Shown piece by piece: positions 16,612-48,392 of a stretch of 64,000 nt of DNA. Origin of the DNA: Novakomyces olei (Eukaryota); the NCBI GenBank assembly GCA_016906335.1, contig JADEYG010000005.1, forward strand, positions 372,001 through 436,000, given 5' to 3'. The notes under the pieces are model-generated. The model searched no databases, had not been told where the DNA came from, and saw only the letters and a program-made list of their open reading frames with translations. The number at the start of each line of letters is the position of its first letter. Position 1 is the stretch's first letter. Position numbers and translations under genes: made by a program.

Positions 16612-18758
16612 GTTCGCAGCCGTTCCAAATTCGCGGGTTACTGCACGCTCATCCGTTGCAACTTGTGCTCTCAAAATCATATGCAGTTGCTTCAGATAGC
16701 GATTGTCGTCAATTAGCAAATAAGCTCGAGCCATGCGAGCATTTAGCAATAAAACCAGTCAATCAATCAATTAACCAATATTTGAGCATAGTCTTTGTAT
16801 GTTTTTGATCATTTAATGTATCAATAGAGGGAGGCAAATGATTGATTTTCAGGTTCCGATCGAAATCTAGTCTTTTGCAAAACCTGATGTTAGCTATTGC
16901 GGCGAGCTGAATAAATGTTGCAGAACGAAAGCGCTTTATCATATTCGCTTTGACCAAACGATTAGATTATATGATTTAGTTGGCAGTCTCATAGTATGGC
17001 TATCAAGTATATTTGTTGCAATTCTATTGGCAATATTATCACGGGGCCCGTGAAACCTATACTAAAATGCTTCTTTGATGCAAGTAAATTTAAGAGCCAA
17101 ATGATTAAACGCATAGACTAGTGGACTATCTAGATGAAAACCCTAATTGTCAAAGATAGCTTATGAAGTTTGGAGATGCGTATGTCGGGAAATCTATAAC
17201 CATTGTCCTCGCGTAACATTGCCTCAAGGACGACGCGTTTAACATTTAATAGACTAATCATTATTCTTTGTTACAGCACAGAGCTCCAAATCTTAAGCTA
17301 CTGTTCCATAGTGCTGCCTTTCAAGACTCCTTTTGTAGACAGAAATGGCAAATGGATTCATCGCTGCCCTGATACTGCAAGGTTTTTAGAGCGTTACTCT
17401 ACGCCAATCCGGGAACAAGGCCTTTTTTTTTTAATATGCGTGGTTCTGTGAAAACGGGTATGATCTGTGATTCACGCAGTGATGCACGCAATGGTGTACG
17501 GTCGAGTCATTTTAGATTATCAAGAAAAGTTTCCAATGCCACTGTGTCAAATAATATATGCACAAAAATAGCTTGATTATGTATGAAATGTATGGCAACA
17601 TCGCCTAATAATTGCTTATTAGCCTCGCCATGTGAGTGTGCTCGGCTAAAAGCGGAACAAGCATTAACCGTTTAACTGCATGCAGTTATATTAACAGTGC
17701 AAGAATTAATTTCTGCCCGATCTAATCTAGTAATGTTCTGTGTGCCTGAATCTCCATCGCCCAACATTGCTTTGCATTCTACTATCATCCTCGATCGCAT
17801 GATACACCCGCCTCCAATTTTTGTTTGTCGGTTTATCTCACGTGGATGATGCACACAACCTTTCGCGTATCCCCTCCAGATATTTCCTGGCGAACCCTGA
17901 GCGTTTTCTACTACAATAACCAACTTCGATATTTTGTTTGAAGTCTCTAGTTGTCCTGAGTTGTCCTATTCTCGATTGACAAGTAATCTACTTCTTTTGG
18001 GACTCGGAACATTCCCCGTTAGGCGAGCAGACTTTGACCGACAAATTTGATCGTGTGACATATACGCGATGGCTAGATCAGCCGTAAACGGAAGTATGAC
18101 GAAGGTCTAAAACTAAATGAATTAGATGCTAATTCGACGCACATCTGCCATTCTGGAGTAGTTAAACACGGCGGCGTGAAAGTAAAGCGTTATACATTAT
18201 CCTCAACATTTTGAATCAGCCGGCCGAAAAGAAGCCCGGACTACGCCCTTTGAACTCTATCCTACTTTTCCTTTTCCCTCTCTACTCTCTGCCTTCTATC
18301 CCGATCTCTGTTCCAAGACGGTTGGTTGGCCGTTCGCAAACTGATTGACTATATATACACTTCAAGTAATCTTGATCGTGGAGTGAAGGATTCGATTTGT
18401 CCGGGGCTTATATAAATTTAATCTGACAAACCTGAAAATCAAGTATTATTCGTAGATAACACTAGCAGACTTATCCGAAAAGGATATACGAGCGCCATAG
18501 TATAAACGAATAAAAACAAGCTTACATCGGCTGTATAAATGAGAGACGCTTGTACCCCAATCTCGCAAAGGATCAGTTTACTCGCGGCAATAACAATTAG
18601 CCACAAAGTGGCGCCTTGTACAGCTGATTAGCTGCTTTGTGTGCCTTTTTCTTGTTATCTTTTTATTGCTCGGTAGTCTCTTGTCCCGGTGGGTGACTAG
18701 TGCGGCTGCAAAGGTTCTTTTATACTGTGCTGGCAATTTAAATGACCGCCAGCAGATC

Positions 18759-21057
18759 ATGCGACTACGCCCGTGGTACATGTGCTTGTGGCGCAAAGAC
18801 GCCGTCTTCAAAATCGCGGGTGCTTGTGTCTCCTTACTTGTTTTATTGAGCATCTGGAAACTGCTTTTGACGCCAGACGGACTCTCTCTTCTTGCGCCCT
18901 CAGGAACGCCTTCGAGTTTCGATCACCATCTCTATCTCGGGAATCCGCCCGCGCCATCCGACAATGGCGATAATAATAGTAATGCGACCCAAGAAATGTT
19001 TGAGCGGCTACAGGTTGCAGCGGAAGATTGCCGCTCATACCGAGATCGAGCTTCAGAGCTGCCGGAGCACGTTGTGATTCCTTTTCAAGACATACTCTCG
19101 GGCCAATTCCGACCCAGCGATTGGCTCTCGGAACTCGTCAGCGATGGCAGAATCAAAGAGCCTTTAAGCAAACGCGCAGCTGCCGCTTTGCCTCGGAGTG
19201 CAGATGTCGTAATATCATGGGTGAATGCCTCCGACAGCTGGTTTGCGGGTGCCAAAGCTGCTTGGGAGCAAATGGCCGATTTTGATAATTGGCAAGATTT
19301 TGCCCGGGAAAATGTCAATCGGCATCGCGACTGGGGGGAGTTACGGTACTTGGTCCGGTCGCTATTCAAGTTTTTTCGGCCTCTCAACTCGCTTACTATC
19401 GTAAGCCCTCTGGCCTTCAAGGATCACACGTTTGATCCAAGTGCAGGGCAAAGACCCGGCTGGATGATTTCACAAAAGGAGGCTGAGAAACATAATGTTC
19501 TGACACTAAGCCAGGAGGCCCTACTAGCCGAGTCGCATCAATGCAATCCCGTTTTCTCTTCTGTCGCTGTAGAAGCAGGTCTGCCAAATTTACCGACGGG
19601 TGGACGGGCAAACGCTCCAAAAAATGCACAAGATACACTGTATTATATGAACGACGATATGATGCTTATGCGCAATATGAGTATGGCTAGTATCTACTCA
19701 CCATTCACTGGCTATATGATCAGCTTTGATTATGGGTTTCCACAGCTGTTTAACGAAATTGAAAGACCGCCTTTTGGACGAGGTGAATGGGTGTTTGGCG
19801 AATGGCCTTTTTTGAAAGCCACTTCGTTTGCAATGAGTAAGAGTCTTTATTTTTTTCCCTCTAAATATCAGATCCATAATACTGGTTCATAGGTTGCCTT
19901 TTGTTTTTTCTACCTTTTATTGTTTTACATCTATTTTGTATCCATTTTCTTTTTCACATATTCTTTAATTATCGTCCAAACATCTATCTAACCGATCTCT
20001 AGATCAAAGATTCGGGAACCGTCCGCGACCTTATCCTCGCCATAACGGCCATCCTCTGTCCCGCTCAATCTTGAAAGAAATTAAGCAGACTTTCCCTCGA
20101 TTATTCCAGATTTCCATGGGCCACCGGTGGCGGGGAGAGTCTCCAGCAATACACATGTGGTCATCCTTTTATTGGTACCTTATGGAAAGGCACAGAGAGG
20201 CTTTGCTATGGAGTGCGCTCTCGCTAAAGTTTGATGACGATGGAGATCAAGGCCATATATCTGTCGGGGAGAAAGGCGGAATCTTTGAAATCGCTCGAGA
20301 GCATTTATCAGAGACGTCTTTACATAGAACTTCTCTCGCATCGTATTCTGAAAATGCCCAAAAAATGGGGTACGATATGTCAGATTCAAATTACGTGTAC
20401 TGGACCAGCTGGGACGGTCCATTATGGCTCTCGCAACGGGCCCACTTTGATCCTATTCGCGACGAAGAGTTTGATGCATCGCTAAAGAATTCTGTTCATA
20501 TAAATGCGACGTACCCGGCCATTGACGGCACTTGTAACTTGGATTTCTTGAGCCAATGCCTGCGCCTTGGCGAAAGCGAGTCCACAGAGACAATAATGAA
20601 CAGATTTGTAAGGGAAAGAACTGAGTGTGGCGATTGCTTAATAAATGCTTTAACACGAGCTAGCGGCTCAGAAGGTCTTTCTGCCTTTCTACCGCCCAAC
20701 AGGCGTGGAAATGGCCATTATTTACAGAGTGCAGACAATAAAAAGTCTCTAGTTGTGGACGGCAATGGGTCGCTATTATCGAAATTTGATGCTGCTATTC
20801 TTGCAATCTCCCGGTACTCATACTCTGTGTCAAACATGGATGCTGGGTATGTGCACCTTGTAGATTCTAAAAATGCACAAAAAACTCTCAGCACTTGGAT
20901 CCATGACCCGCCGAATCAGATTTGCCTGAACGATCATATGGATAGTACCCATAGTCGAAGACAATTATTAGATATGAAACAGGTGCTTGATCACTTTTTC
21001 GATACTGTCTACGGAGGCGATATGGATACTTGCGCTGTCGAAATTCCCTCGGCTTAG
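18759..21057 (+). CDS. Stealth-family sugar-1-phosphate phosphotransferase (Xpt1/GNPTAB/CpsY-like), type II membrane protein
   Basis: Exons 18759-19836 and 20003-21057. N-terminal TM anchor and all four Stealth conserved regions: DVVISWVNASD (CR1), RHRDWGELRYLVRSL...YYMNDDMML (CR2), RFGNRPRPYPRHNGH (CR3), ICLND (CR4). Confidence 0.88.
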
Positions 21058-28284: not shown

Positions 28285-29197
28285 ATGACAAAAGAAGTGA
28301 TCAAAGTAAGGTGCAATGGCGAGTCACCAGCGCTGATTTTTAGGTGGCCGTGCTGGTCAACATGCACGCAAACTCGGCCATAACAAAAGAAGGAATCGCA
28401 AATATTTACCGCGATTTTCTGCAGAAATCCATCAATGGCTATAACAGTTCCGTGGCACTAGAATTTTCATGGTACGACGCAGTGCGGCTTGAGTTTCCCG
28501 ACGCGTCCGCTTTGGCCAACTTGGATCTGCTTTTGTTATCTGGAGGCAGTATGTATTGCTCTCGTGTTTTGCTTCCTTTTTATATATTTATCTATTGTCC
28601 AATAAAAGTTTGAACCGTCTAACCTTAGGCGATCCCCCACAATCGGACGAGTATGAGTGGATTAACAAGGAACGTCGGGAACTGGCTCGTGCGTTCACCG
28701 AGTATCCGGCTCTTAAAGTCGTGGGTATCTGCTGGGGACACCAAGTCACAAACATTGTTCTCGGCGGCAGTGTTGCAGAGAATCCATTGGGTTGGGAGGT
28801 AAGGTCTATCTTTTTAATTTAGCAATCGAAATATCATGTGTACTGATCGGCTTAGCTGGGCGTAAAAGAGATCAAATTAACGCGCGAAGGCTCCGAGTTT
28901 TTTGGGGTGCCCGCCCTGAGATTACACGAGTTTCATCATCGTCACGTAACAGACCAAGCTCCCCATACAATACGTACAGCGTCTTCTGTTTTGACACCAC
29001 TTCAAGGAATATTTAAAGACAATCGTATAATCACACTTCAAGGTCATCCCGAAGCTAGTGCGCAAGTCATGCGAGCCTGGCTGGCCGACAAAGTTAATGG
29101 CAAAGGCATTGCATGGAATGAAAGCGATCTAGATTTGCCTCATGATGGGCTCGTAATCGGGCAGCGGCTCGTAAAATGGATCATAGAAGGTAGCTAG
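28285..29197 (+). CDS. Class I glutamine amidotransferase-like protein (stand-alone GATase1; gamma-glutamyl hydrolase/peptidase-like), 245 aa
   Basis: Exons 28285-28305, 28344-28548, 28629-28798 and 28856-29197 total 738 nt in frame. Oxyanion LLSGGS, nucleophile GICWGHQ and QGHPE give an intact Cys-His-Glu triad. Confidence 0.9.
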
Positions 29198-29456
29198 GAT
29201 TAGGGTTAATGTATACTCGTTTTTAAGTGTCGTATTGCTTTGAGACAGAATAGTCAAATTAAAGGACTTTGTGCACATATATTATTTTTAATAGACCGAT
29301 TGATAAACTGCGCACAGTATGACTTTGCTGTACGTACAAGGTGTGGAGTATAATACCGACGGTTACACATCCCACGGTTGTGTTACACAAGACTTTGTAG
29401 GACTTGTGTAAAGCCGTGTGAGGGTGCGCAGACAGCTGCCAGGGACCATCTAGACA

Positions 29457-32052
29457 ATGGCATTAGACGAACATCCCGCGCCTGCCAATGGCAGCCAAAC
29501 AGGTGCAGAACTCTTCAAACTACCTACAGAATGCCGGAATGCACGGACGCTAAACATCGACCGCATGAGCACATTGGACTGCGTTCGCACCATCAATCAA
29601 GAAGATTCGTCGGTACCACAGTCATTAGAGCCAGTGCTTCCAATCTTGGCTGCGGCTGTTGACGAAACAGTTCCTCGAGTACGAAATGGGGGCCGTGTAA
29701 TATATATAGGTGCCGGCACGAGCGGACGGTATGCCACTCCCTCCTGGCTTTTTTTCTTAGCTATTTATTTATATTTTATTTTTATATATTTCTATTTTCT
29801 CAGTTGCAACCAAGATCTGTTTTGGCCGTTTTTTGATACTTTCCTCTGGATTGCGCTCTTTTTGTTTCCCTTATTTCACCACTTTAAAACGAAAAATCTT
29901 CAGCCGTTATCGGTTCTCTATGCCAATCAATCTAAGTGTACCTTCATGGTGTTTATAAATAATAAATTTTCCATCTCGTCTGCAGTTTCCGGCAAGTGTT
30001 CTGATTTTCAAGGTTGGGCGTACTCGATGCTTCCGAGCTACTGCCCACGTTTTCCGCGGACCCGGATCAGTTTATTGGCGTGATTGCTGGTGGAGATACT
30101 GCTTTAAGGTGGGCTGTTGAAGGCGCAGAGGACTCGCGGGATGAAGCGGTGCGGACCCTGACAGAAATGAATCTGCAAGTCATCGACACGGTTATCGGTA
30201 TTGCCGCGTCTGGACGCACACCTTACGTCATCAGTGGGCTAGCCCACGCAAAATCAGTGGGATGTCTTACTATCGGAGTTGTGTGCGTCCCACATTCCGC
30301 TTTAGCACAGGCTGGGGTGGCTTCATTTGTTATCGCGCCTGTTCCGGGCCCAGAGGTTGGCTCACGATCTAGTTTCTTGTCATTAATCGAGCAGGTTGTT
30401 ACTGGAAGTACCCGGCTCAAAGCCGGGACAGCGACGAAGCTGGTGCTTAATACGCTGAGTACTACGCTCATGATTGCTCTGGGCAAGACTTACGGAAATT
30501 TGGTACGGGCCCTGTAAGAGCCTAGGCTCTTAAATTTTTTTTTAAATTTAATTCTTGCTCTTGTGTTTTATAATTGACCCAAGATTTTATTTTATTTGAC
30601 TTTACAACAATCTCTCTCGTACAACAAGTATTTTGCTCTTTTCTGAATTCCCATTAACTTCTAATACTGCTCTCTCTGACCCTTAAGATGGTAGATTTGC
30701 GCACAAGCAATGCGAAACTAGTGGCGCGCGCGACTAATATTGTACGTGAAGCTTGTGGCGCACGTATCCACGTGCCGCGTGGGGGCCAATCATCCCCTCT
30801 CGCTGAGCCCACGGACGAAAATGTGGCTACACTTTTAAGGGCGTGCAATGGCAGTGCTAAACTGGCTATTCTTGTAGCCCAATCAGGCTTATCTGTGAAA
30901 GAAGCAGAGCGTTCATTGGCCGCACACGGACGATTAGCATCTGCCTTATCTGATTTTCCATCAAAAAACTGTACAGATTTGCCATCAGACAATGTCGACG
31001 CAACAAACGGCAATTCGCTACCCACAAAACCAAACGGCACTTGGAGCCTTGCTATTGATGCGGGGGGATCCTCGTGTGATGCTGTTTTGCTAAGCAACAA
31101 TGGCAGTTCTTTTCGCTACAAGGGCGGCTCGTGCAATTTGTATGTTTACTTTTTTATTTTGTTTTTCTAATAAAACAGTCTAAATCTCGGCGTTGCTGGA
31201 TGCGTGCAACGAATCAGTGAAGCTGCGCGTCAGGTCACAGAGGAAGCGGCAATCACTGTGCGGGATGTTTCAGCTGCGTGGATCGGTATGGCCGGTCTAG
31301 ATCGCCGCGATGATATTATACGGATGCGAGAGGAAATGCTCTTGGTTTTCCCCCACCTTTTGCTGGACCAGCGGCTCTTTGTCACAAACGATTGCCTAAT
31401 GACATCAGTCGGCGCAGAGCTGCGTGGGAGGGCTGTGGGATTGATCTGCGGTACAGGCAGTGTGGCTATGAGTTATGTACAAGGAGATAAGCAAGACACG
31501 GGAATCCTTCCGAGACGCGTTGCGCGGGCTGGCGGATGGGGTCCCGTACTCGGCGATGATGGAAGCGGATTTGCCATTGGCAGGGCGGCGATAAGAAACT
31601 GTCTCGCCAGTATCGATGCTGGCACCAATCTCTCGCCCCTGCAATCGGCAGTTTTACAGCACTACAATGCGGACGGAGAAGATTTACTACGTAAAGTCCT
31701 CGTTACAGACTCGACCGGACCGGCTTCCGGTGCGTCGTCACGTGTCACCGAGATTGCCCGCACGAGTGGGCTGGTTCTCACGCTGTACGAAAGAGGAAAT
31801 GCGGAGGCCGTCGAAATTGTGGAGGCGGCACATTCCGCACTTGCCGGTATTGTGCACAGTTTGTGTCGAAAGGACACGGAGCTTTGTCCGGAAGAAGCGA
31901 GTCTCCTGCTCGTAGGTGGGCTATTTAAAAACGAAAAATTTTGCAACAATTTTCTCGTTCGATTAAAGGCGCTCGAAATTCGGTTTAAAGCCGTTCGCCA
32001 TATTCAGGACCCGGCGTGGTTGAGCGTGAATTACCTTCAGGCAAACATTTGA
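29457..32052 (+). CDS. murQ: Fusion protein: MurQ-type N-acetylmuramic acid-6-phosphate etherase (SIS/GCKR family) plus BadF/BadG/BcrA/BcrD-type (NAGK/MurK-like) amino-sugar kinase, 682 aa
   Basis: Exons 29457-29728, 30013-30355, 30395-30502, 30688-31139 and 31179-32052 total 2049 nt in frame. MurQ motifs: TECRN..[89 protein letters not shown]. Kinase motifs: IDAGGS, IGMAG, VTND, ICGTGS, RAGGWGPVLGDDGSGFAIG, LVGGLF. Confidence 0.92.
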
Positions 32053-43464: not shown

Positions 43465-45081
43465 GATCCGTTTCAGTTGCCGTTTGCGCTCATTCAAACG
43501 CTGGGCTTTATTTACGCTATTTACAATGCGGGGCTTGAAGCTTTTGCGCTGTATCCGCTAGCAGAAACTCACTGCTTAAAAGCTAAACATTGGTCGCGCA
43601 GAGCCATTATTCAGCCTCAATATTACGGTTTCTGCGTGAAAGCAAAGCCTACCGACGGCACTCTTATCGAGATCAATTAAAGTAGTAGTCGTACTTTGAC
43701 CGGCGATTAATACGTACTTTTCTTTGTCGGTATATAGCACATTTAATTCGTCTTGTATACGTATGAATAACTTTGGGGTTTTAGTATCGATGATGCACCA
43801 CATAAAATGTATGAAAAGATCGGGTATTAAAATAGTGAATAGTTTGAATGGTACTTTATTCTTATAAACTCTTATCTCGATGACTTTAGCGAATTGACAA
43901 TAAAGACTTGAAGATAAAAAGGAGCGAGCGAGCGAGCGTTTAGCATTGTGATGTGACATGGAACAGCAGCAACAACCAATATTCGACGATACTAATTTCT
44001 TGTATACTTTTCACAATGTATTTGTTTGTTTTCGAATGATTCGATGTCTATTCTCACAAAATTATTAATTTATTTTTACAAGCACGGCGGACCAGCCGTC
44101 AACGGTGGCCGAGCCGCCTTTTGTTAGATTAGCATAAATTACCACAACTCCTGCCTGCCACTGTAAATATTTCTTCCAAAAACTGTACTTTAGCATAATA
44201 GTTATTCATATAACCAAGAAGGGTCGAGTAACTTTTGCCAAGATAAGGTCGGTAGGTTATTTATAGTAGTACTTTGAAACAGAGGAGTATAATACAGAGT
44301 ACCTGTCGATTGTCAGGTACACACGTGATTGGCCGATAAATAGCTTAAAGAAAAAGCGTGAACGGCTGCAGACTGATTGCTGTCAGAAGGGCGGCATTTG
44401 AAGGTTGCAAACTGGTCACTAATAAAAGTCTAACATTCAAAGAGAGGCAAATAAAAGAGAGGCAAAGAAAAAGAGGCAAGAACTGTCACGGAAAATGAGC
44501 GAGTAACGCGCGGACGCGTACACAACTCGTTTTAGTCAGTTTGACGTATTCCGACCGTCTCGCTTTTCATGTGGATATTTTGACTCGTTGCGTCGTGTGA
44601 GCGGTGATATATTGGTCGACGGAAGTAAAATCTCATCAGCTGAACCATCAAACATTAAATACCGATCTTGTCAGCTATACTTATTGAGCTCAATCAAAGT
44701 GACGAGGCCATAGGCGAGGCTGTTCCAGTTACCCACTGGATTACTGGTTCCGAGGGACAATTGAACGTTGCGACAGAAAGAACGTTCATTCTGTACTTTG
44801 AGAAACTTCAACTCGGTCACCGTACATTCAAGGCTCACGCAATTACCAGTTCGTGTCGGCGCCTGTTTCTTGTATTGCGTCACTTTTAGCGCTACAGGCT
44901 AACTGTAGCAATCTCGCTCCACCTCCGTGTCTGATCCATCAGCTCTTTCAGCTCTTTCTTTTCTTTGTTTGTTTATTGAATTATTTTTTATACATTTGCC
45001 GTAATCTTTATACGAGGCGGTTGAATTACAGTTTGAACTGTTTTCTTTTATCATTGATTCAACCCATCTCTGCTCTCGGCC

Positions 45082-48000
45082 ATGAACGCGTATGGACGGG
45101 ACTATGGGCCGTCAGGAGACGGTGATTCCAATACGCCTGATCGACGATTACCGTCTGATTCGCCCGGATGGACTCCGATCGAGCGGCCGGCAAGAACGCG
45201 ATACATAACGCCTCGTAATGCGCCAATGGCTGCAAACGAAGGAGCCTCAGAGAGCTATGAAATGGCAAACCCCCGTCCTCCTCCGATCGATTTTAGTCCG
45301 GGCAATTTCCACTCGGCTTATAGCCCTTTTCAAGATCAAGACGCTTCGCCTTATGGATCTTTAGCACGTCAGCGTGCTCACAGGTTTAATGACGATGGCA
45401 ATAATAATTACAACAACAGCAATATTAATAGTTTTAATGATTATAGCCAAGAAAACAGCGACAGTGCAGGAGCATTGCGCGTCCCCAGACGCCCAGTGCC
45501 GAGTCCGTCACGTGCACCTTCGGCTCAGTCGCTTCTCCCTGACGACCAAACTCCGTTATTTGACCCGGCAATGCCCTTTGACAGCAGACCTAATTTCCCC
45601 TACCAGCCGCCCTTTAGCAGTGCTGCCTATGGTGAAGGTGCTCAATTGCTGGCAGAGCAAAATAGTGCTGAATCTCCGTTTACGAATCCTTATTCGAATC
45701 GCTACGCAAATAGTTATACGGACCACCAAGAGCCGGCTCCGTTGGCGGACGGGTTTCAGGATAATGTTTCTATTGTCTCGTCGAATTTACAGTATGAAGA
45801 GCCCACTAAACAGAGTCTTGTTCGCGAAGATGGGGGAGATGAGGAGTACGGGATAGAGGGCACTAATGTTCGCTATGGAGAGCTGCCTGTTCGACAGCCG
45901 AGACGTTGGAAGACCGTTAAACGTGTAGAGCTTTACAAGGGCAATCTAGTGCTCGACTGTCCTATACCGAACAGGCTGCTGTCTTCGCTATCGATCAAGG
46001 AAGGCCGTGAGTTTACCCACATGCGTTACACTGCTGCCACGTGTGATCCTGCAGACTTTAAAAAGGAAAGGTTCACCCTTCGTCAGCCACTGTACGACCA
46101 GCCCAGACATACTGAGCTTTTTATAGTTGCTACAATGTACAACGAGGACCAAGTACTCTTTACGCGTACAATGTACGCGATACAAAAGAACATTAGAAAC
46201 TTTGTGAAGCGGTCTCGATCACGAATTTGGGGAGAAAATGGATGGAAAAAAATTGTAGTCGCTATCGTGTCTGACGGCCGGCGTAAAATAAACCCAAAGA
46301 CTTTAGCCGTTCTTGCGGCAATGGGGGTTTATCAGGATGGGGTCGCCAAAAGTGTTGTTAATGGGCGGCCAGTGCAGGCTCACATTTACGAATATACTAC
46401 ACAAATTGCAGTGGACCCGGAAATGAATATCCACCATGAAAACACTGTACCCGTGCAGATAATCTTTTGTTTAAAGGAACAAAATAAGAAAAAGCTAAAC
46501 TCTCATCGGTGGTTTTTCGACGCCTTCAGTCCCATCCTTAACCCTAATATCTGTGTTTTATTGGACGTGGGTACGCAACCCGGCGGCGATTCCCTGTATC
46601 ATTTATGGAAGGCCTTTGATATAAACGCAAACGTTGCTGGAGCCTGTGGAGAGATTCGGGCAATGAAGGGTCGGGCTGGATCTAATCTCGTTAACCCTCT
46701 TGTGGCAGCTCAGAATTTTGAGTATAAAATTAGCAATATCTTGGATAAGCCGTTTGAAAGTATGTTTGGCTTCATCTCTGTGCTGCCGGGTGCTTTTTCT
46801 GCTTACCGATACGTTGCTCTTCAAAATGGTGTTGATGGGTCGGGGCCTTTGGAAAAATATTTCAAGGGCGAGACGAATACTAGTAATGCGGGGGTAAGTT
46901 GCTTTATAATTTGATGGACTATTTTATTTATTAATCTTCCAATTAATTAGCGGCTAATGTCAGATCTTTGAAGCAAACATGTACCTAGCGGAAGATCGTA
47001 TTCTATGCTTTGAGCTGGTGGCCAAAAAGAACTGCAGTTGGGTTCTGCAGTACGTTAAGTCTGCCTATGCAGAAACTGACGTGCCTGATCGGCTGCCTGA
47101 GCTTGTTTCCCAGCGCCGTCGATGGCTGAACGGCAGTTTTTTTGCCTCTGTCTATTCCCTAGCACATTTCTACAAAATTTGGCACAGCAGCCATGGGCTT
47201 TTTCGGAAAGTAATGCTTCACTTTGAGTTCTTTTATCAAGCTGTTCAGGTCGTTTTTTCGTGGTTCATGCTGGCAAATTTTTTCATTATTTTTTCAATTT
47301 TAACTTCATCGATGGGTGATAGCACTGTGAATTTCAGTCCGGGCGCAGTCATCTACATCGTGTGCGCTTGGATTTATGTAGCATTACTTGTCATGTGTTT
47401 TGTTTTGGGCCTGGGAAATCGGCCTCAAGGTAGTAAATGGTCGTTTCTCTTTGCCGCCGGATTTTTCGCGGTTCTAATGGCGTAAGTGCTTCTTTAATTT
47501 GTTTTTATTTTTTGTTTAATTAGTTTTGTATTTACATTTATATCTACATTTGTGCTTGATTGCTTTATATTTTTCTATTCGGCTAATTATTTCCAGGTAC
47601 ATGCTCTTTTGTACAGTTTGGTTATCGTACAGGGCGATCGCGAGCACAGTAGCAGATTTGCATCGGAATGGAGTCGCTCTTACTTTTCAAAGCACAGTCA
47701 GAATTGTATTTGAAAACAGTGTTTTTCGAAACCTTATTGTGTCCCTGGGCTCGACGTATGTCCTGTACCTGGTCGCCTCCCTTTTATACTTTGAACCGTG
47801 GCATATGGTGACGTCCTTTTTACAGTACCTTTTGTTGTCTCCGAGTTATACAAACATATTGAACGTTTACGCATTTTGCAACGTGCACGATGTTAGTTGG
47901 GGTACAAAAGGCGAAACTAAAGTCTCTACTGAGTTAGGTGTAATTTCGGCAAAAAAGGATAACGAGGCTGTTGATGTCGCAATGCCAACGGGCGAAAACG

Positions 48001-48392
48001 ACTTGAACGAGGCGTATACTGAGGCAATACAAATCCTGGCGACTAAATCGGCTCCGATTAAAATTGGGTCTCGCGATGAGGAAACAAAACGGCAGGATTA
48101 TTATCGTAATTTTCGTACAAATGTCGTTTTGGCCTGGATACTGAGCAATGCTGCTCTTGTTGCAATTATTATGAATATTGGTGTTCAAACACAGTCTGTT
48201 ACTGCGGACGAACGAAATGCCCGGTCAAGTGTTTATATGGCAATCATGTATGTTTATTTATTTATTTATTTATTTATTTATATAACAATTATTGATATCA
48301 ACAATAGATTATGGGCGGTTGCTGGAATGGCTCTTGTCAGATTTGTCGGAGCAGTCTCGTATCTGGTGAGAAGATTGATTCAAGGCGAATAG
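45082..48392 (+). CDS. CHS1: Chitin synthase, division 1 (class I-like)
   Basis: Introns 46894-46963, 47482-47597 and 48248-48307. [81 protein letters not shown]. Confidence 0.95.

Follow-up and report, generated by a model that had tools for sequence, protein, structure and literature searches.

A MurQ-type etherase domain fused to a BadF/NagK/MurK-type kinase in Novakomyces olei: a candidate one-protein route for the assimilation of MurNAc

The gene described here lies on contig JADEYG010000005.1 of Novakomyces olei, within a window (the whole stretch of DNA that was analysed) of 64,000 nucleotides. It is read as five exons at 29457-32052 (+), which coordinate splicing joins through four GT-AG introns into the coding sequence of a 682-aa protein, with a spliced coding length of 2049 nt, 682 codons and a single terminal stop. 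The predicted protein combines an N-terminal MurNAc-6-phosphate etherase (MurQ) domain with a C-terminal sugar kinase, and the parts of its gene are as follows.

Exon 1, 29457..29728, + strand: opens with the start codon and runs through the MurQ N-terminus as far as the GAGTSG(R) phosphate loop; matches positions 7-81 of 307 in the NCBIfam MurQ profile (E 6e-24)
Intron 1, 29729..30012, + strand: 284 nt, GTATGC..AAG, GC 0.35; the joined sequence matches 9/9 homologues
Exon 2, 30013..30355, + strand: core of the SIS domain, carrying ASGRTPY and the two glutamates of DASE and EGAED; matches H. influenzae MurQ 4lzj/1nri with E 1e-25
Intron 2, 30356..30394, + strand: 39 nt, in frame, GTTGGC..CAG, GC 0.44; probable; a gap in 9/9 homologues
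Exon 3, 30395..30502, + strand: MurQ segment up to YGNL, from the MurQ profile and homologue alignment
Intron 3, 30503..30687, + strand: 185 nt, GTACGG..AAG, GC 0.33; YGNL|MVDL junction as in homologues
Exon 4, 30688..31139, + strand: MurQ C-terminal lid (to ~30951), variable linker (~30952-31041) and predicted kinase N-terminus with DAGGSS (from ~31042)
Intron 4, 31140..31178, + strand: 39 nt, GTATGT..CAG, GC 0.18
Exon 5, 31179..32052, + strand: remainder of the predicted BadF/NagK/MurK-type kinase (catalytic N-D, GTGS, GGWG..GDDGSG, LVGGL); stop codon at 32050-32052

Translation is taken to start at 29457, where the first in-frame ATG follows a stop at 29451-29453. Each of the four splice junctions gives an unbroken alignment with all nine fused homologues, so that the single 682-aa frame over four GT-AG introns proposed in an earlier sequence-only reading of this DNA is borne out by coordinate splicing and by homologue alignment (9/9); the predicted splice sites themselves are backed only by homology. 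Introns 1, 3 and 4 are AT-rich (GC 0.35, 0.33 and 0.18) relative to the exons (0.50-0.56), with intron 2 less distinct (0.44), and all four introns (284, 39, 185 and 39 nt) begin with GT and end with AG. Intron 4 must be spliced out, since leaving it in would bring in-frame stops and a shift of frame. Intron 2 is in frame and read-through is therefore possible; its 13 codons fall in an alignment gap in 9/9 homologues. On a profile made from as many as 15 stand-alone bacterial MurQ sequences, the protein scores 376.6 bits with the intron removed and 354.8 bits with it kept, a loss of 22 bits. We consider it a probable genuine intron. Introns this short are usual here, since the chitin synthase gene in the same window has introns of 42 and 57 nt, as read by eye.

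A candidate fifth in-frame GT..AG stretch of 36 nt, at 30772-30807, corresponds to a 12-residue insertion in the lid relative to all homologues. The MurQ profile score gains 13 bits when it is excised, as would happen on deletion of any insertion. We judged the stretch to be probably coding: its GC content is high (0.69, against 0.18-0.44 in the introns that we accept), the donor site is poor, no branch-like motif is present, and the lid in which it falls varies in length. The fusion itself is independent of splicing, because the two halves meet within one exon: exon 4 holds the end of MurQ, then the linker, then the leading kinase motif, with no stop between them. Residues 1-88 of this exon match positions 224-296 of 300 in the MurQ profile, and the kinase half begins at protein residue 360. 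The N-terminus is hydrophilic and, by reading only, shows no apparent signal peptide, in agreement with the earlier reading.

As judged from profile coverage and motifs, the N-terminal half is a full-length MurQ domain. The NCBIfam MurQ models are covered from position 7 to 303 of 307 across exons 1-4, with the single SIS domain and C-terminal lid that these models describe, and the middle piece alone scores 184 bits, above the NCBIfam MurQ subfamily cut-off of 168. Against the bacterial MurQ profile the spliced protein aligns over positions 4-297 with the 376.6 bits given above, and the Aspergillus fumigatus homologue scores 373 bits. On the TIGR00274 MurQ equivalog (cut-off 302 bits) the three pieces from the window add up to ~268 bits, a rough sum in which the middle piece includes translated intron; the fungal homologues tested lie above this cut-off in 3/3 cases (336, 313 and 303 bits). 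The MurQ motifs named in the sequence-only reading, the glutamate pair among them, are all present, at residues 85 (GAGTSGR), 95 (LDASE), 127 (EGAED) and 156 (ASGRTPY), with one more at 208. The DASE and EGAED glutamates line up with those of H. influenzae MurQ, are invariant in 23/23 fungal fusions and are kept in the window copy. We take these glutamates to be the catalytic pair (in E. coli MurQ, Glu83 and Glu114, as reported by Hadi et al. 2008).

The C-terminal half is, on the evidence of its motifs and matches, a BadF/NagK/MurK-type ASKHA sugar kinase, and the earlier claim that it is complete holds up. The features of BadF/BadG/BcrA/BcrD-type ASKHA proteins are all found, namely phosphate-1 DxGG(S/T), the catalytic Asp, phosphate-2 GTGS, GGWG..GD(D/E)GSG and a C-terminal GG, and the motifs lie at residues 365 (DAGGSS), 461 (TNDC), 482 (CGTGS), 510 (GGWGPVLGDDGSG) and 636 (LVGGL). 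Exon 5 matches Pfam PF01869 with E 4e-12, and its best solved match is 8zo3, the MurK of Clostridium acetobutylicum, with E 6e-12. A profile of the kinase half from the 23 fungal fusions gives 121 bits on the same C. acetobutylicum MurK, 84 on the Sulfolobus tokodaii hexokinase, 58 on human NAGK and 32 on the Tannerella forsythia kinases, and the AlphaFold model of an Amanita homologue ranks the kinase structures in the same order. The only NCBIfam kinase model matched was the NagK_SO3507 equivalog (cut-off 370 bits), on which exon 5 of the window gene scores 49.6 bits, far below the cut-off, and the fungal and bacterial relatives 50-112 bits.

How far the kinase motifs speak to the substrate is limited. 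The catalytic Asp is preceded by Asn in the window kinase, in NAGK and in the C. acetobutylicum MurK, and by Thr in the strictly MurNAc-specific MurK of T. forsythia (PMC10465942); in the same paper, the authors of the MurK structures state that MurNAc binding in this class of kinase is unreadable from sequence. The C. acetobutylicum MurK accepts both MurNAc and GlcNAc (PMC5790795, citing Reith 2011), with a slight preference for GlcNAc according to PMC5790795. We infer MurNAc rather than GlcNAc as the kinase substrate, and it is only the linkage to MurQ that argues for it.

The separate phylogenies of each domain that the sequence-only reading had proposed were run, and both place the window gene in the fungal clade, to which it belongs. 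Fungal and bacterial fusions form separate clades in both domain trees (99* support). The window copy sits deep in the fungal clade, near its base, on a long branch in both trees (1.35 and 1.8 changes per column). It retains 74/78 invariant and 57/68 near-invariant family columns, with none of the changed columns in catalytic or phosphate-binding motifs.

Annotated proteins of the same architecture occur in many Ascomycota and in a part of the Basidiomycota. One of their names, 'glucokinase regulator family protein', had been given correctly in the sequence-only reading; in UniRef the fungal proteins are called 'N-acetyl-D-glucosamine kinase', and one genome paper places the gene within chitin biosynthesis (PMC9159588). 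The present gene model of the Aspergillus nidulans orthologue (ANIA_11038, 373 aa) looks split. In our literature search we found no paper testing a role of the fusion in MurNAc use in any fungus. Fungi are not alone in carrying the fusion, which is widespread among them and common in bacteria, where fused clusters of 62-94 members occur in three phyla (Verrucomicrobiota, Actinomycetota and Hydrogenedentota) and where we found three single-ORF loci. The window copy itself brings a modest gain, as a divergent addition to a family already catalogued. From the bacterial fusion clusters and both domain trees a bacterial ancestry of the fusion, earlier called probable, is plausible. In side searches, the P0027 search of genome contigs gave one locus with a 30-residue match, and the P0027 kinase half as query gave nine homologous proteins.

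In bacteria the two activities are genetically coupled. Eighteen metagenome loci had a match reaching the kinase half, and blastp of stop-to-stop ORFs, by which fused and adjacent genes were told apart, resolved these into 3 single-ORF fusions, 11 loci with murQ followed directly by the kinase gene, 3 with the reverse order and 1 cut by a contig end. The separate ORFs in 14/18 loci fit two consecutive enzymes. Among 77 flanking ORFs at 13 of the 18 loci were four NamZ exo-muramidases, three AnmK, three sodium:solute symporters, two GH3 and two proteins of the beta-lactamase fold. The window gene, for its part, sits on a fungal chromosome amid housekeeping genes and the chitin synthase gene. 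Among the ~40 annotated ORFs of the 64-kb window we found no muramidase, amidase, NamZ or dedicated transporter; one MFS transporter lies ~18 kb from the fusion gene. Nor was a peptidoglycan-use gene seen adjoining the fusion, the upstream ORFs (28344-29197) having no Pfam match and the downstream neighbour being a short-chain dehydrogenase.

To account for this combination of domains, we propose that the protein is a cytosolic bifunctional enzyme that converts MurNAc to MurNAc-6P and then to GlcNAc-6P and D-lactate, a reading we regard as fairly probable. In the first step the C-terminal ASKHA kinase would transfer phosphate from ATP to free MurNAc, at O6, with GlcNAc probably a substrate as well; in the second, the N-terminal MurQ domain would strip the D-lactyl ether off MurNAc-6P, leaving GlcNAc-6P and D-lactate. 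The GlcNAc-6P could feed into the usual amino-sugar metabolism of fungi, either through the deacetylase and deaminase to fructose-6P or through UDP-GlcNAc to chitin, and the likely biological use would be feeding on bacterial cell-wall debris. Alongside the kinase substrate, we infer the etherase activity of the window copy, the uptake of MurNAc and the physiological role.

Other readings of the same protein have to be weighed against this one. The two halves may be a real enzyme pair that acts on other substrates, for instance a GlcNAc or hexosamine kinase joined to an SIS domain that works on a different phospho-sugar or on a lactyl/ether sugar from outside peptidoglycan. The slight preference of the nearest solved kinase, C. 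acetobutylicum MurK, for GlcNAc (PMC5790795), the UniRef name of the fungal proteins and the statement that MurNAc binding is unassignable from sequence (PMC10465942) all point in this direction. Against it stand the N-terminal half, which passes the MurQ equivalog cut-off in 3/3 tested fungal homologues, the two glutamate motifs, invariant in 23/23 fungal fusions and the window copy, and the bacterial relatives, which adjoin NamZ and AnmK, enzymes that act on MurNAc. In addition, fungi phosphorylate GlcNAc by a hexokinase-type enzyme. We think it unlikely that the substrates are others, and give this reading more weight than either of the next two.

The earlier reading had also suggested that the SIS domain is a sensor of sugar phosphates which regulates the attached kinase, as GKRP does glucokinase, and is not a catalyst. 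The Pfam label of the best domain, GKRP_SIS_N, agrees with this, as does the descent of GKRP from MurQ (bioRxiv 10.64898/2026.05.08.723886). The suggestion fares poorly against the architecture of the protein, which has one SIS and a short lid instead of a double SIS, with no match to PF22198 (GKRP_SIS_2) in the window pieces; against the profile of the 23 fungal fusions, which scores 385 bits on solved MurQ structures and 113 on GKRP; and against the bacterial genes, often separate ORFs (14/18 loci). We regard it as very improbable. That the window copy is a relic, in decay or without function, or that its halves are made as separate products, would be consistent with its long branches in both trees, its identity of only 37-44% to other fungal fusions and the 12-residue insertion in the lid, and yet the frame is intact over five exons, 74/78 invariant residues are retained, the protein does as well on the MurQ profile as its A. 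fumigatus homologue, and the halves are joined inside one exon without a stop. This, too, seems improbable to us, if less so than the sensor. Our preferred reading remains that of a kinase and etherase acting in turn on MurNAc.

For the Dikarya as a whole we propose, tentatively, that the fusion may represent an old and largely vertical one-protein cytosolic route of MurNAc assimilation, acquired once from bacteria in an already fused state, and that it may supply an enzymatic step so far missing from the fungal use of bacterial necromass, and with it from muramic-acid turnover in soil; we see this as quite possible without holding it probable. If the enzyme acts as we propose, the one sugar unique to bacteria would be open, without the bacterial PTS, to many moulds, to dermatophytes and to some yeasts and mushrooms, which bears on fungal feeding on dead or living bacteria, on the turnover of soil muramic acid, a marker of bacterial necromass, and on the history of gene transfer from bacteria to fungi. 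In fungi that live with bacteria the route, if it exists, could also destroy or read signals derived from muropeptides. The names 'glucokinase regulator' and 'GlcNAc kinase', long present in fungal annotations, mask this possible role.

Among known systems, the murT-murK-murQ operon of T. forsythia allows MurNAc to be used without a PTS by a kinase and MurQ, and follows the same logic, with a cytoplasmic BadF-family kinase that makes MurNAc-6P and subsequent cleavage by MurQ (PMC5790795). Bacterial relatives of the window gene likewise have sodium-symporter genes beside them. Unlike the window gene, however, its genes are separate and not fused, and the window has no linked transporter; its kinases are distant from the fungal kinase half (32 bits on the profile, where C. 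acetobutylicum MurK has 121) and carry Thr in place of Asn before the catalytic Asp (PMC10465942). Among solved kinases, the C. acetobutylicum MurK (8zo3) comes nearest in both sequence and fold, and it has the N-D dipeptide and GGWG..GDEGSG in common with the window protein; it is a stand-alone protein of 306 aa with ~21% identity to the modelled Amanita homologue, and its specificity for MurNAc and GlcNAc is dual. Eukaryotic etherases are active in Naegleria and in non-mammalian homologues of GKRP (bioRxiv 10.64898/2026.05.08.723886), and such activity in eukaryotes has been proposed to serve the digestion of bacterial walls (bioRxiv 10.64898/2026.05.08.723886; PMC7052976). GKRP and the GKRP-type etherase of Naegleria share the MurQ-derived SIS fold with the window protein, but GKRP has a duplicated double SIS and lid over ~620 aa without a kinase, whereas the window protein is a single MurQ unit with a kinase. 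A like organisation is found in the bacterial MurQ-BadF kinase fusions, with the domain order and length (~600-650 aa) of the fungal protein, which differ in lacking introns, in lying in peptidoglycan-recycling neighbourhoods and in forming clades of their own, and in the other fungal MurQ-kinase fusions, which share both architecture and clade with the window protein, itself the divergent, near-basal member.

The fusion of a MurQ etherase with a BadF/NagK-type kinase is encoded by five open stretches at window positions 29457-32052 (+), which join into one 2049-nt frame of 682 codons with a single terminal stop. These exons are given below, together with a chitin synthase gene from the same window that served as a fungal marker and for intron-size calibration.

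29457-29728, + strand: exon 1, part of the spliced frame, MurQ half
30013-30355, + strand: exon 2, E = 1e-25 against the solved H. influenzae and Yersinia MurQ
30395-30502, + strand: exon 3, MurQ half
30688-31139, + strand: exon 4, end of the MurQ lid, linker and start of the kinase
31179-32052, + strand: exon 5, BadF/BcrAD-type ASKHA kinase, PF01869, E = 4e-12
45058-48392, + strand: chitin synthase gene (Chitin_synth_1N/1/2), in three ORF pieces

The four introns (284, 39, 185 and 39 nt) all run from GT to AG, and introns 1, 3 and 4 have GC contents of 0.35, 0.33 and 0.18, against 0.50-0.56 in the exons; these three need to be spliced out, because otherwise the frame is lost or stops are met. 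Intron 2 (30356-30394) is in frame, has a GC content of 0.44 and could in principle be translated. We accept it as an intron because its 13 codons, which lie within the conserved GPE/VTGSTRxK segment, are a gap in all nine fused homologues (9/9), and because retaining them lowers the bacterial MurQ profile score from 376.6 to 354.8 bits. This genome ordinarily has very short introns, as the chitin synthase gene shows: the two read by eye there measure about 57 nt (46894-46950) and 42 nt (47482-47523). The homologue alignment is free of gaps across all four exon junctions, and the predicted five-exon model is based on homology; the spliced frame and this alignment confirm the sequence-only reading, which had joined the pieces through four GT-AG introns into one 682-aa frame. 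Within the MurQ lid, window positions 30772-30807 hold a 12-residue insertion missing from all nine aligned homologues; its edges form an in-frame GT..AG, and this stretch of 36 nt, with a GC content of 0.69, is read as probable coding sequence and not as a fifth intron.

The N-terminal half is by homology a MurQ etherase: exons 1-4 cover profile positions 7-303 of 307 in the NCBIfam MurNAc-6-phosphate etherase models, and the middle piece alone scores 184 bits, against a subfamily cut-off of 168. The C-terminal half is, likewise by homology, a sugar kinase, with exon 5 matching best among solved structures 8zo3 (E = 6e-12), which a structure match to the Amanita model identifies as MurK of Clostridium acetobutylicum, and more weakly S. 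tokodaii hexokinase (3e-7) and human GlcNAc kinase (2e-6). These matches bear out the division into halves proposed earlier, and the motifs named for the etherase are all present in the window protein, as are those of the kinase. In exon 4 the MurQ lid ends, a variable linker of about 30 residues follows, and DAGGSS, the first motif of the kinase, comes next; no stop interrupts this stretch, and the fusion is therefore independent of any splice. AlphaFold models the Amanita thiersii homologue with a mean pLDDT of 79 and a pTM of 0.53; interdomain residues 275-294 have pLDDT below 50, consistent with the family having a flexible linker.

The gene is part of a fungal chromosome and not a contaminant, because the genes around it are ordinary eukaryotic ones: mitochondrial ribosomal protein S25, a WD40 protein, a short-chain dehydrogenase, a GRAM/VASt protein (nearest Atlas clusters from Ascomycota and Basidiomycota) and CPSF73. 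The window further holds Utp14, a Vps39-like protein, ABC-F, an MFS transporter, a TOG protein, THO2 and Atg3, and its fungal markers include Opy2 and a Mid2-like sensor in addition to chitin synthase. Among annotated neighbours within the window, no peptidoglycan-related genes lie beside the fusion gene. The gene immediately upstream (28344-29197, +) comprises three ORF pieces with a GICWGHQ-like motif resembling class I glutamine amidotransferases, and a scan of pieces 28493-28819 and 28856-29194 gave no Pfam match. Elsewhere in the window, at 18594-21057 (+), two ORFs next to each other with Stealth CR2 and CR3 regions (a hexose-1-phosphotransferase-like family) are probably one intron-containing gene.

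The fusion is widespread in fungi. A search with the kinase exon gave 28 proteins longer than 509 aa, of which 26 combine SIS and BadF domains, and among these 26 all 19 with an organism given are from Ascomycota. With the MurQ exon, fusions make up 52 of the best 120 rows, from Aspergillus (including A. fumigatus and A. clavatus), Penicillium, Talaromyces, Monascus, Cladophialophora, Fonsecaea, dermatophytes, Pseudogymnoascus, Xylona, Sordariomycetes and the yeasts Sugiyamaella and Kuraishia; the basidiomycete Amanita thiersii has a 643-aa fusion. Several of the best representative matches (300-480 aa) and MurQ-only models lie on equal-sized contigs (e.g. 30271, 34015 and 3700673 nt) and look like one gene split by prokaryote-style gene calling. 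In one homologue, P0028 (803 aa, from a 222-kb contig), a BadF-type kinase and MFS sugar-transporter domains stand in a single model; either the model merges separate genes or it signals a transporter gene adjoining such a kinase in some eukaryote.

Separate phylogenies of the two domains, which had been called for earlier, were built from quick searches and are unrooted (54 rows for MurQ, 64 for the kinase). In the MurQ tree all fungal sequences, including the window protein, the yeasts and Amanita, form one 34-row clade (support 99), and bacterial-type fusions with planctomycete MurQ form another (99); the kinase tree is congruent, with the bacterial-type fusions again separate (99). For MurQ, the window's copy joins the fungal clade at its basal polytomy (branch 1.35 changes per column), and for the kinase it lies near the Amanita group (weak support of 80, branch 1.8). 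The congruence indicates that both halves travelled together throughout the fungal clade and, taken with the bacterial fusions, favours acquisition of an already-fused gene with later intron gain over a fusion made in fungi. Marasmius, a basidiomycete, has MurQ sequences (P0115, P0135) that are nested inside the Pezizomycotina part of the tree, and a table in the Moniliophthora roreri genome paper, in its comparison of that species with other basidiomycetes, lists a 'glucokinase regulator family' gene (PMC3948071); together these may reflect fungus-to-fungus transfer.

On function, we consider a two-step cytosolic conversion the best-supported reading, and a reasonably probable one: the kinase half would convert MurNAc to MurNAc-6P, which the MurQ half would cleave to GlcNAc-6P and D-lactate. 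For the etherase half, the profile of 23 fungal fusions scores 385 bits on solved MurQ versus 113 on the glucokinase regulatory protein, GKRP; each of the three fungal homologues tested exceeds the MurQ equivalog cut-off; and active etherases are described among eukaryotic MurQ descendants, such as Naegleria and lancelet GKRP homologues (bioRxiv 10.64898/2026.05.08.723886). A role of the SIS domain like that of GKRP is highly improbable. Among kinases, the same profile reaches 121 bits on C. acetobutylicum MurK, 58 on human NAGK and 32 on those from T. forsythia, and fold comparison with the AlphaFold model of the Amanita homologue also places C. acetobutylicum MurK nearest. That enzyme is reported to accept MurNAc as well as GlcNAc (PMC5790795), and the MurK-structure authors state that MurNAc binding is not readable from sequence (PMC10465942); MurNAc specificity is therefore proposed here from linkage to MurQ and not from residues, and a different substrate pair for the kinase and SIS domain is a lesser possibility, though a real one. 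At the catalytic aspartate, Asn-Asp is found in the window protein, in Eurotiales members and in C. acetobutylicum MurK; the Sordariomycete fusions P0001, P0003, P0004 and P0012 have Thr-Asp, and P0010 has Ala-Asp. T. forsythia MurK also has Thr (T94) at this site, which has been tied to MurNAc accommodation (PMC10465942).

That the window copy is decaying, or that its halves are made as separate products, is unlikely. Its identity to other fungal members is 37-44% overall, and it keeps 74 of the 78 columns invariant among the 23 fungal fusions and 57 of the 68 near-invariant ones; the four changed invariant columns all lie outside the catalytic and phosphate-binding motifs, and its MurQ half scores as high against the bacterial profile as the A. 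fumigatus homologue.

The literature search, with most subscription papers and supplements outside its reach, turned up no work testing the function of the fusion or of any etherase from fungi, and an earlier mention of the fungal fusion in print may exist. The murQ gene of Monascus appears in a KEGG-style listing under chitin biosynthesis (PMC9159588), protist murQ is treated as a prey-digestion gene (PMC7052976, PMC13198582), and a murQ transfer into Camponotini ants is, by its authors' account, the first reported (PMC13320244).

In bacteria, ESM Atlas clusters combining SIS and BadF have 62-94 members, most commonly from Hydrogenedentota, Verrucomicrobiota and Actinomycetota; one Ascomycota cluster has 87. 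A MurQ-ROK kinase fusion at Atlas rank 23 (574 aa, 193 members, commonest phylum Bacteroidota) is also present, and the same two activities seem to be fused there with an unrelated kinase type. When metagenome contigs were scanned with seven bacterial-type fusions, 80 loci of 593 confirmed relatives were kept, and gene context was counted in the 18 with a match into the kinase half (leaving out locus L039 and 61 loci with MurQ-only matches). Both halves share a single ORF in three (L002-L004), murQ is followed directly by the kinase gene in 11, often with overlapping ends, the order is reversed in three and a contig end cuts one, although assembly frameshifts could blur the distinction between fused and adjacent. 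Families that recur among 77 flanking ORFs around 13 of the 18 loci (first 25 of 84 families listed) are the exo-muramidase NamZ (4), AnmK (3), sodium:solute symporters (3), GH3 (2), beta-lactamase folds (2) and a WD40-type family (3) taken as unrelated. Such flanking genes adjoin the murQ-kinase pair in L006, L008, L011, L015 and L045, and the flanking families are the company expected for MurNAc catabolism. Two loci from uncultured bacteria (L008:3616-7553 and L006:987-3730), with one or two NamZ genes and a sodium:solute symporter gene divergent from the murQ-kinase pair, look like compact MurNAc-utilisation loci.

Hence, of the one-gene MurNAc route proposed in the sequence-only reading, the observation stands and the MurNAc interpretation is supported in part, while a new kind of system is not what we find; the interest lies in fungal metabolism, through the predicted role. 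With the window gene, a fungal family that has been catalogued though not characterised gains a new, divergent member. The bacterial murQ-kinase loci keep gene company that parallels the Tannerella forsythia murT-murK-murQ operon, a characterised system (PMC5790795), and the fungal family mirrors this two-enzyme route known from bacteria, along with the fusions found there.
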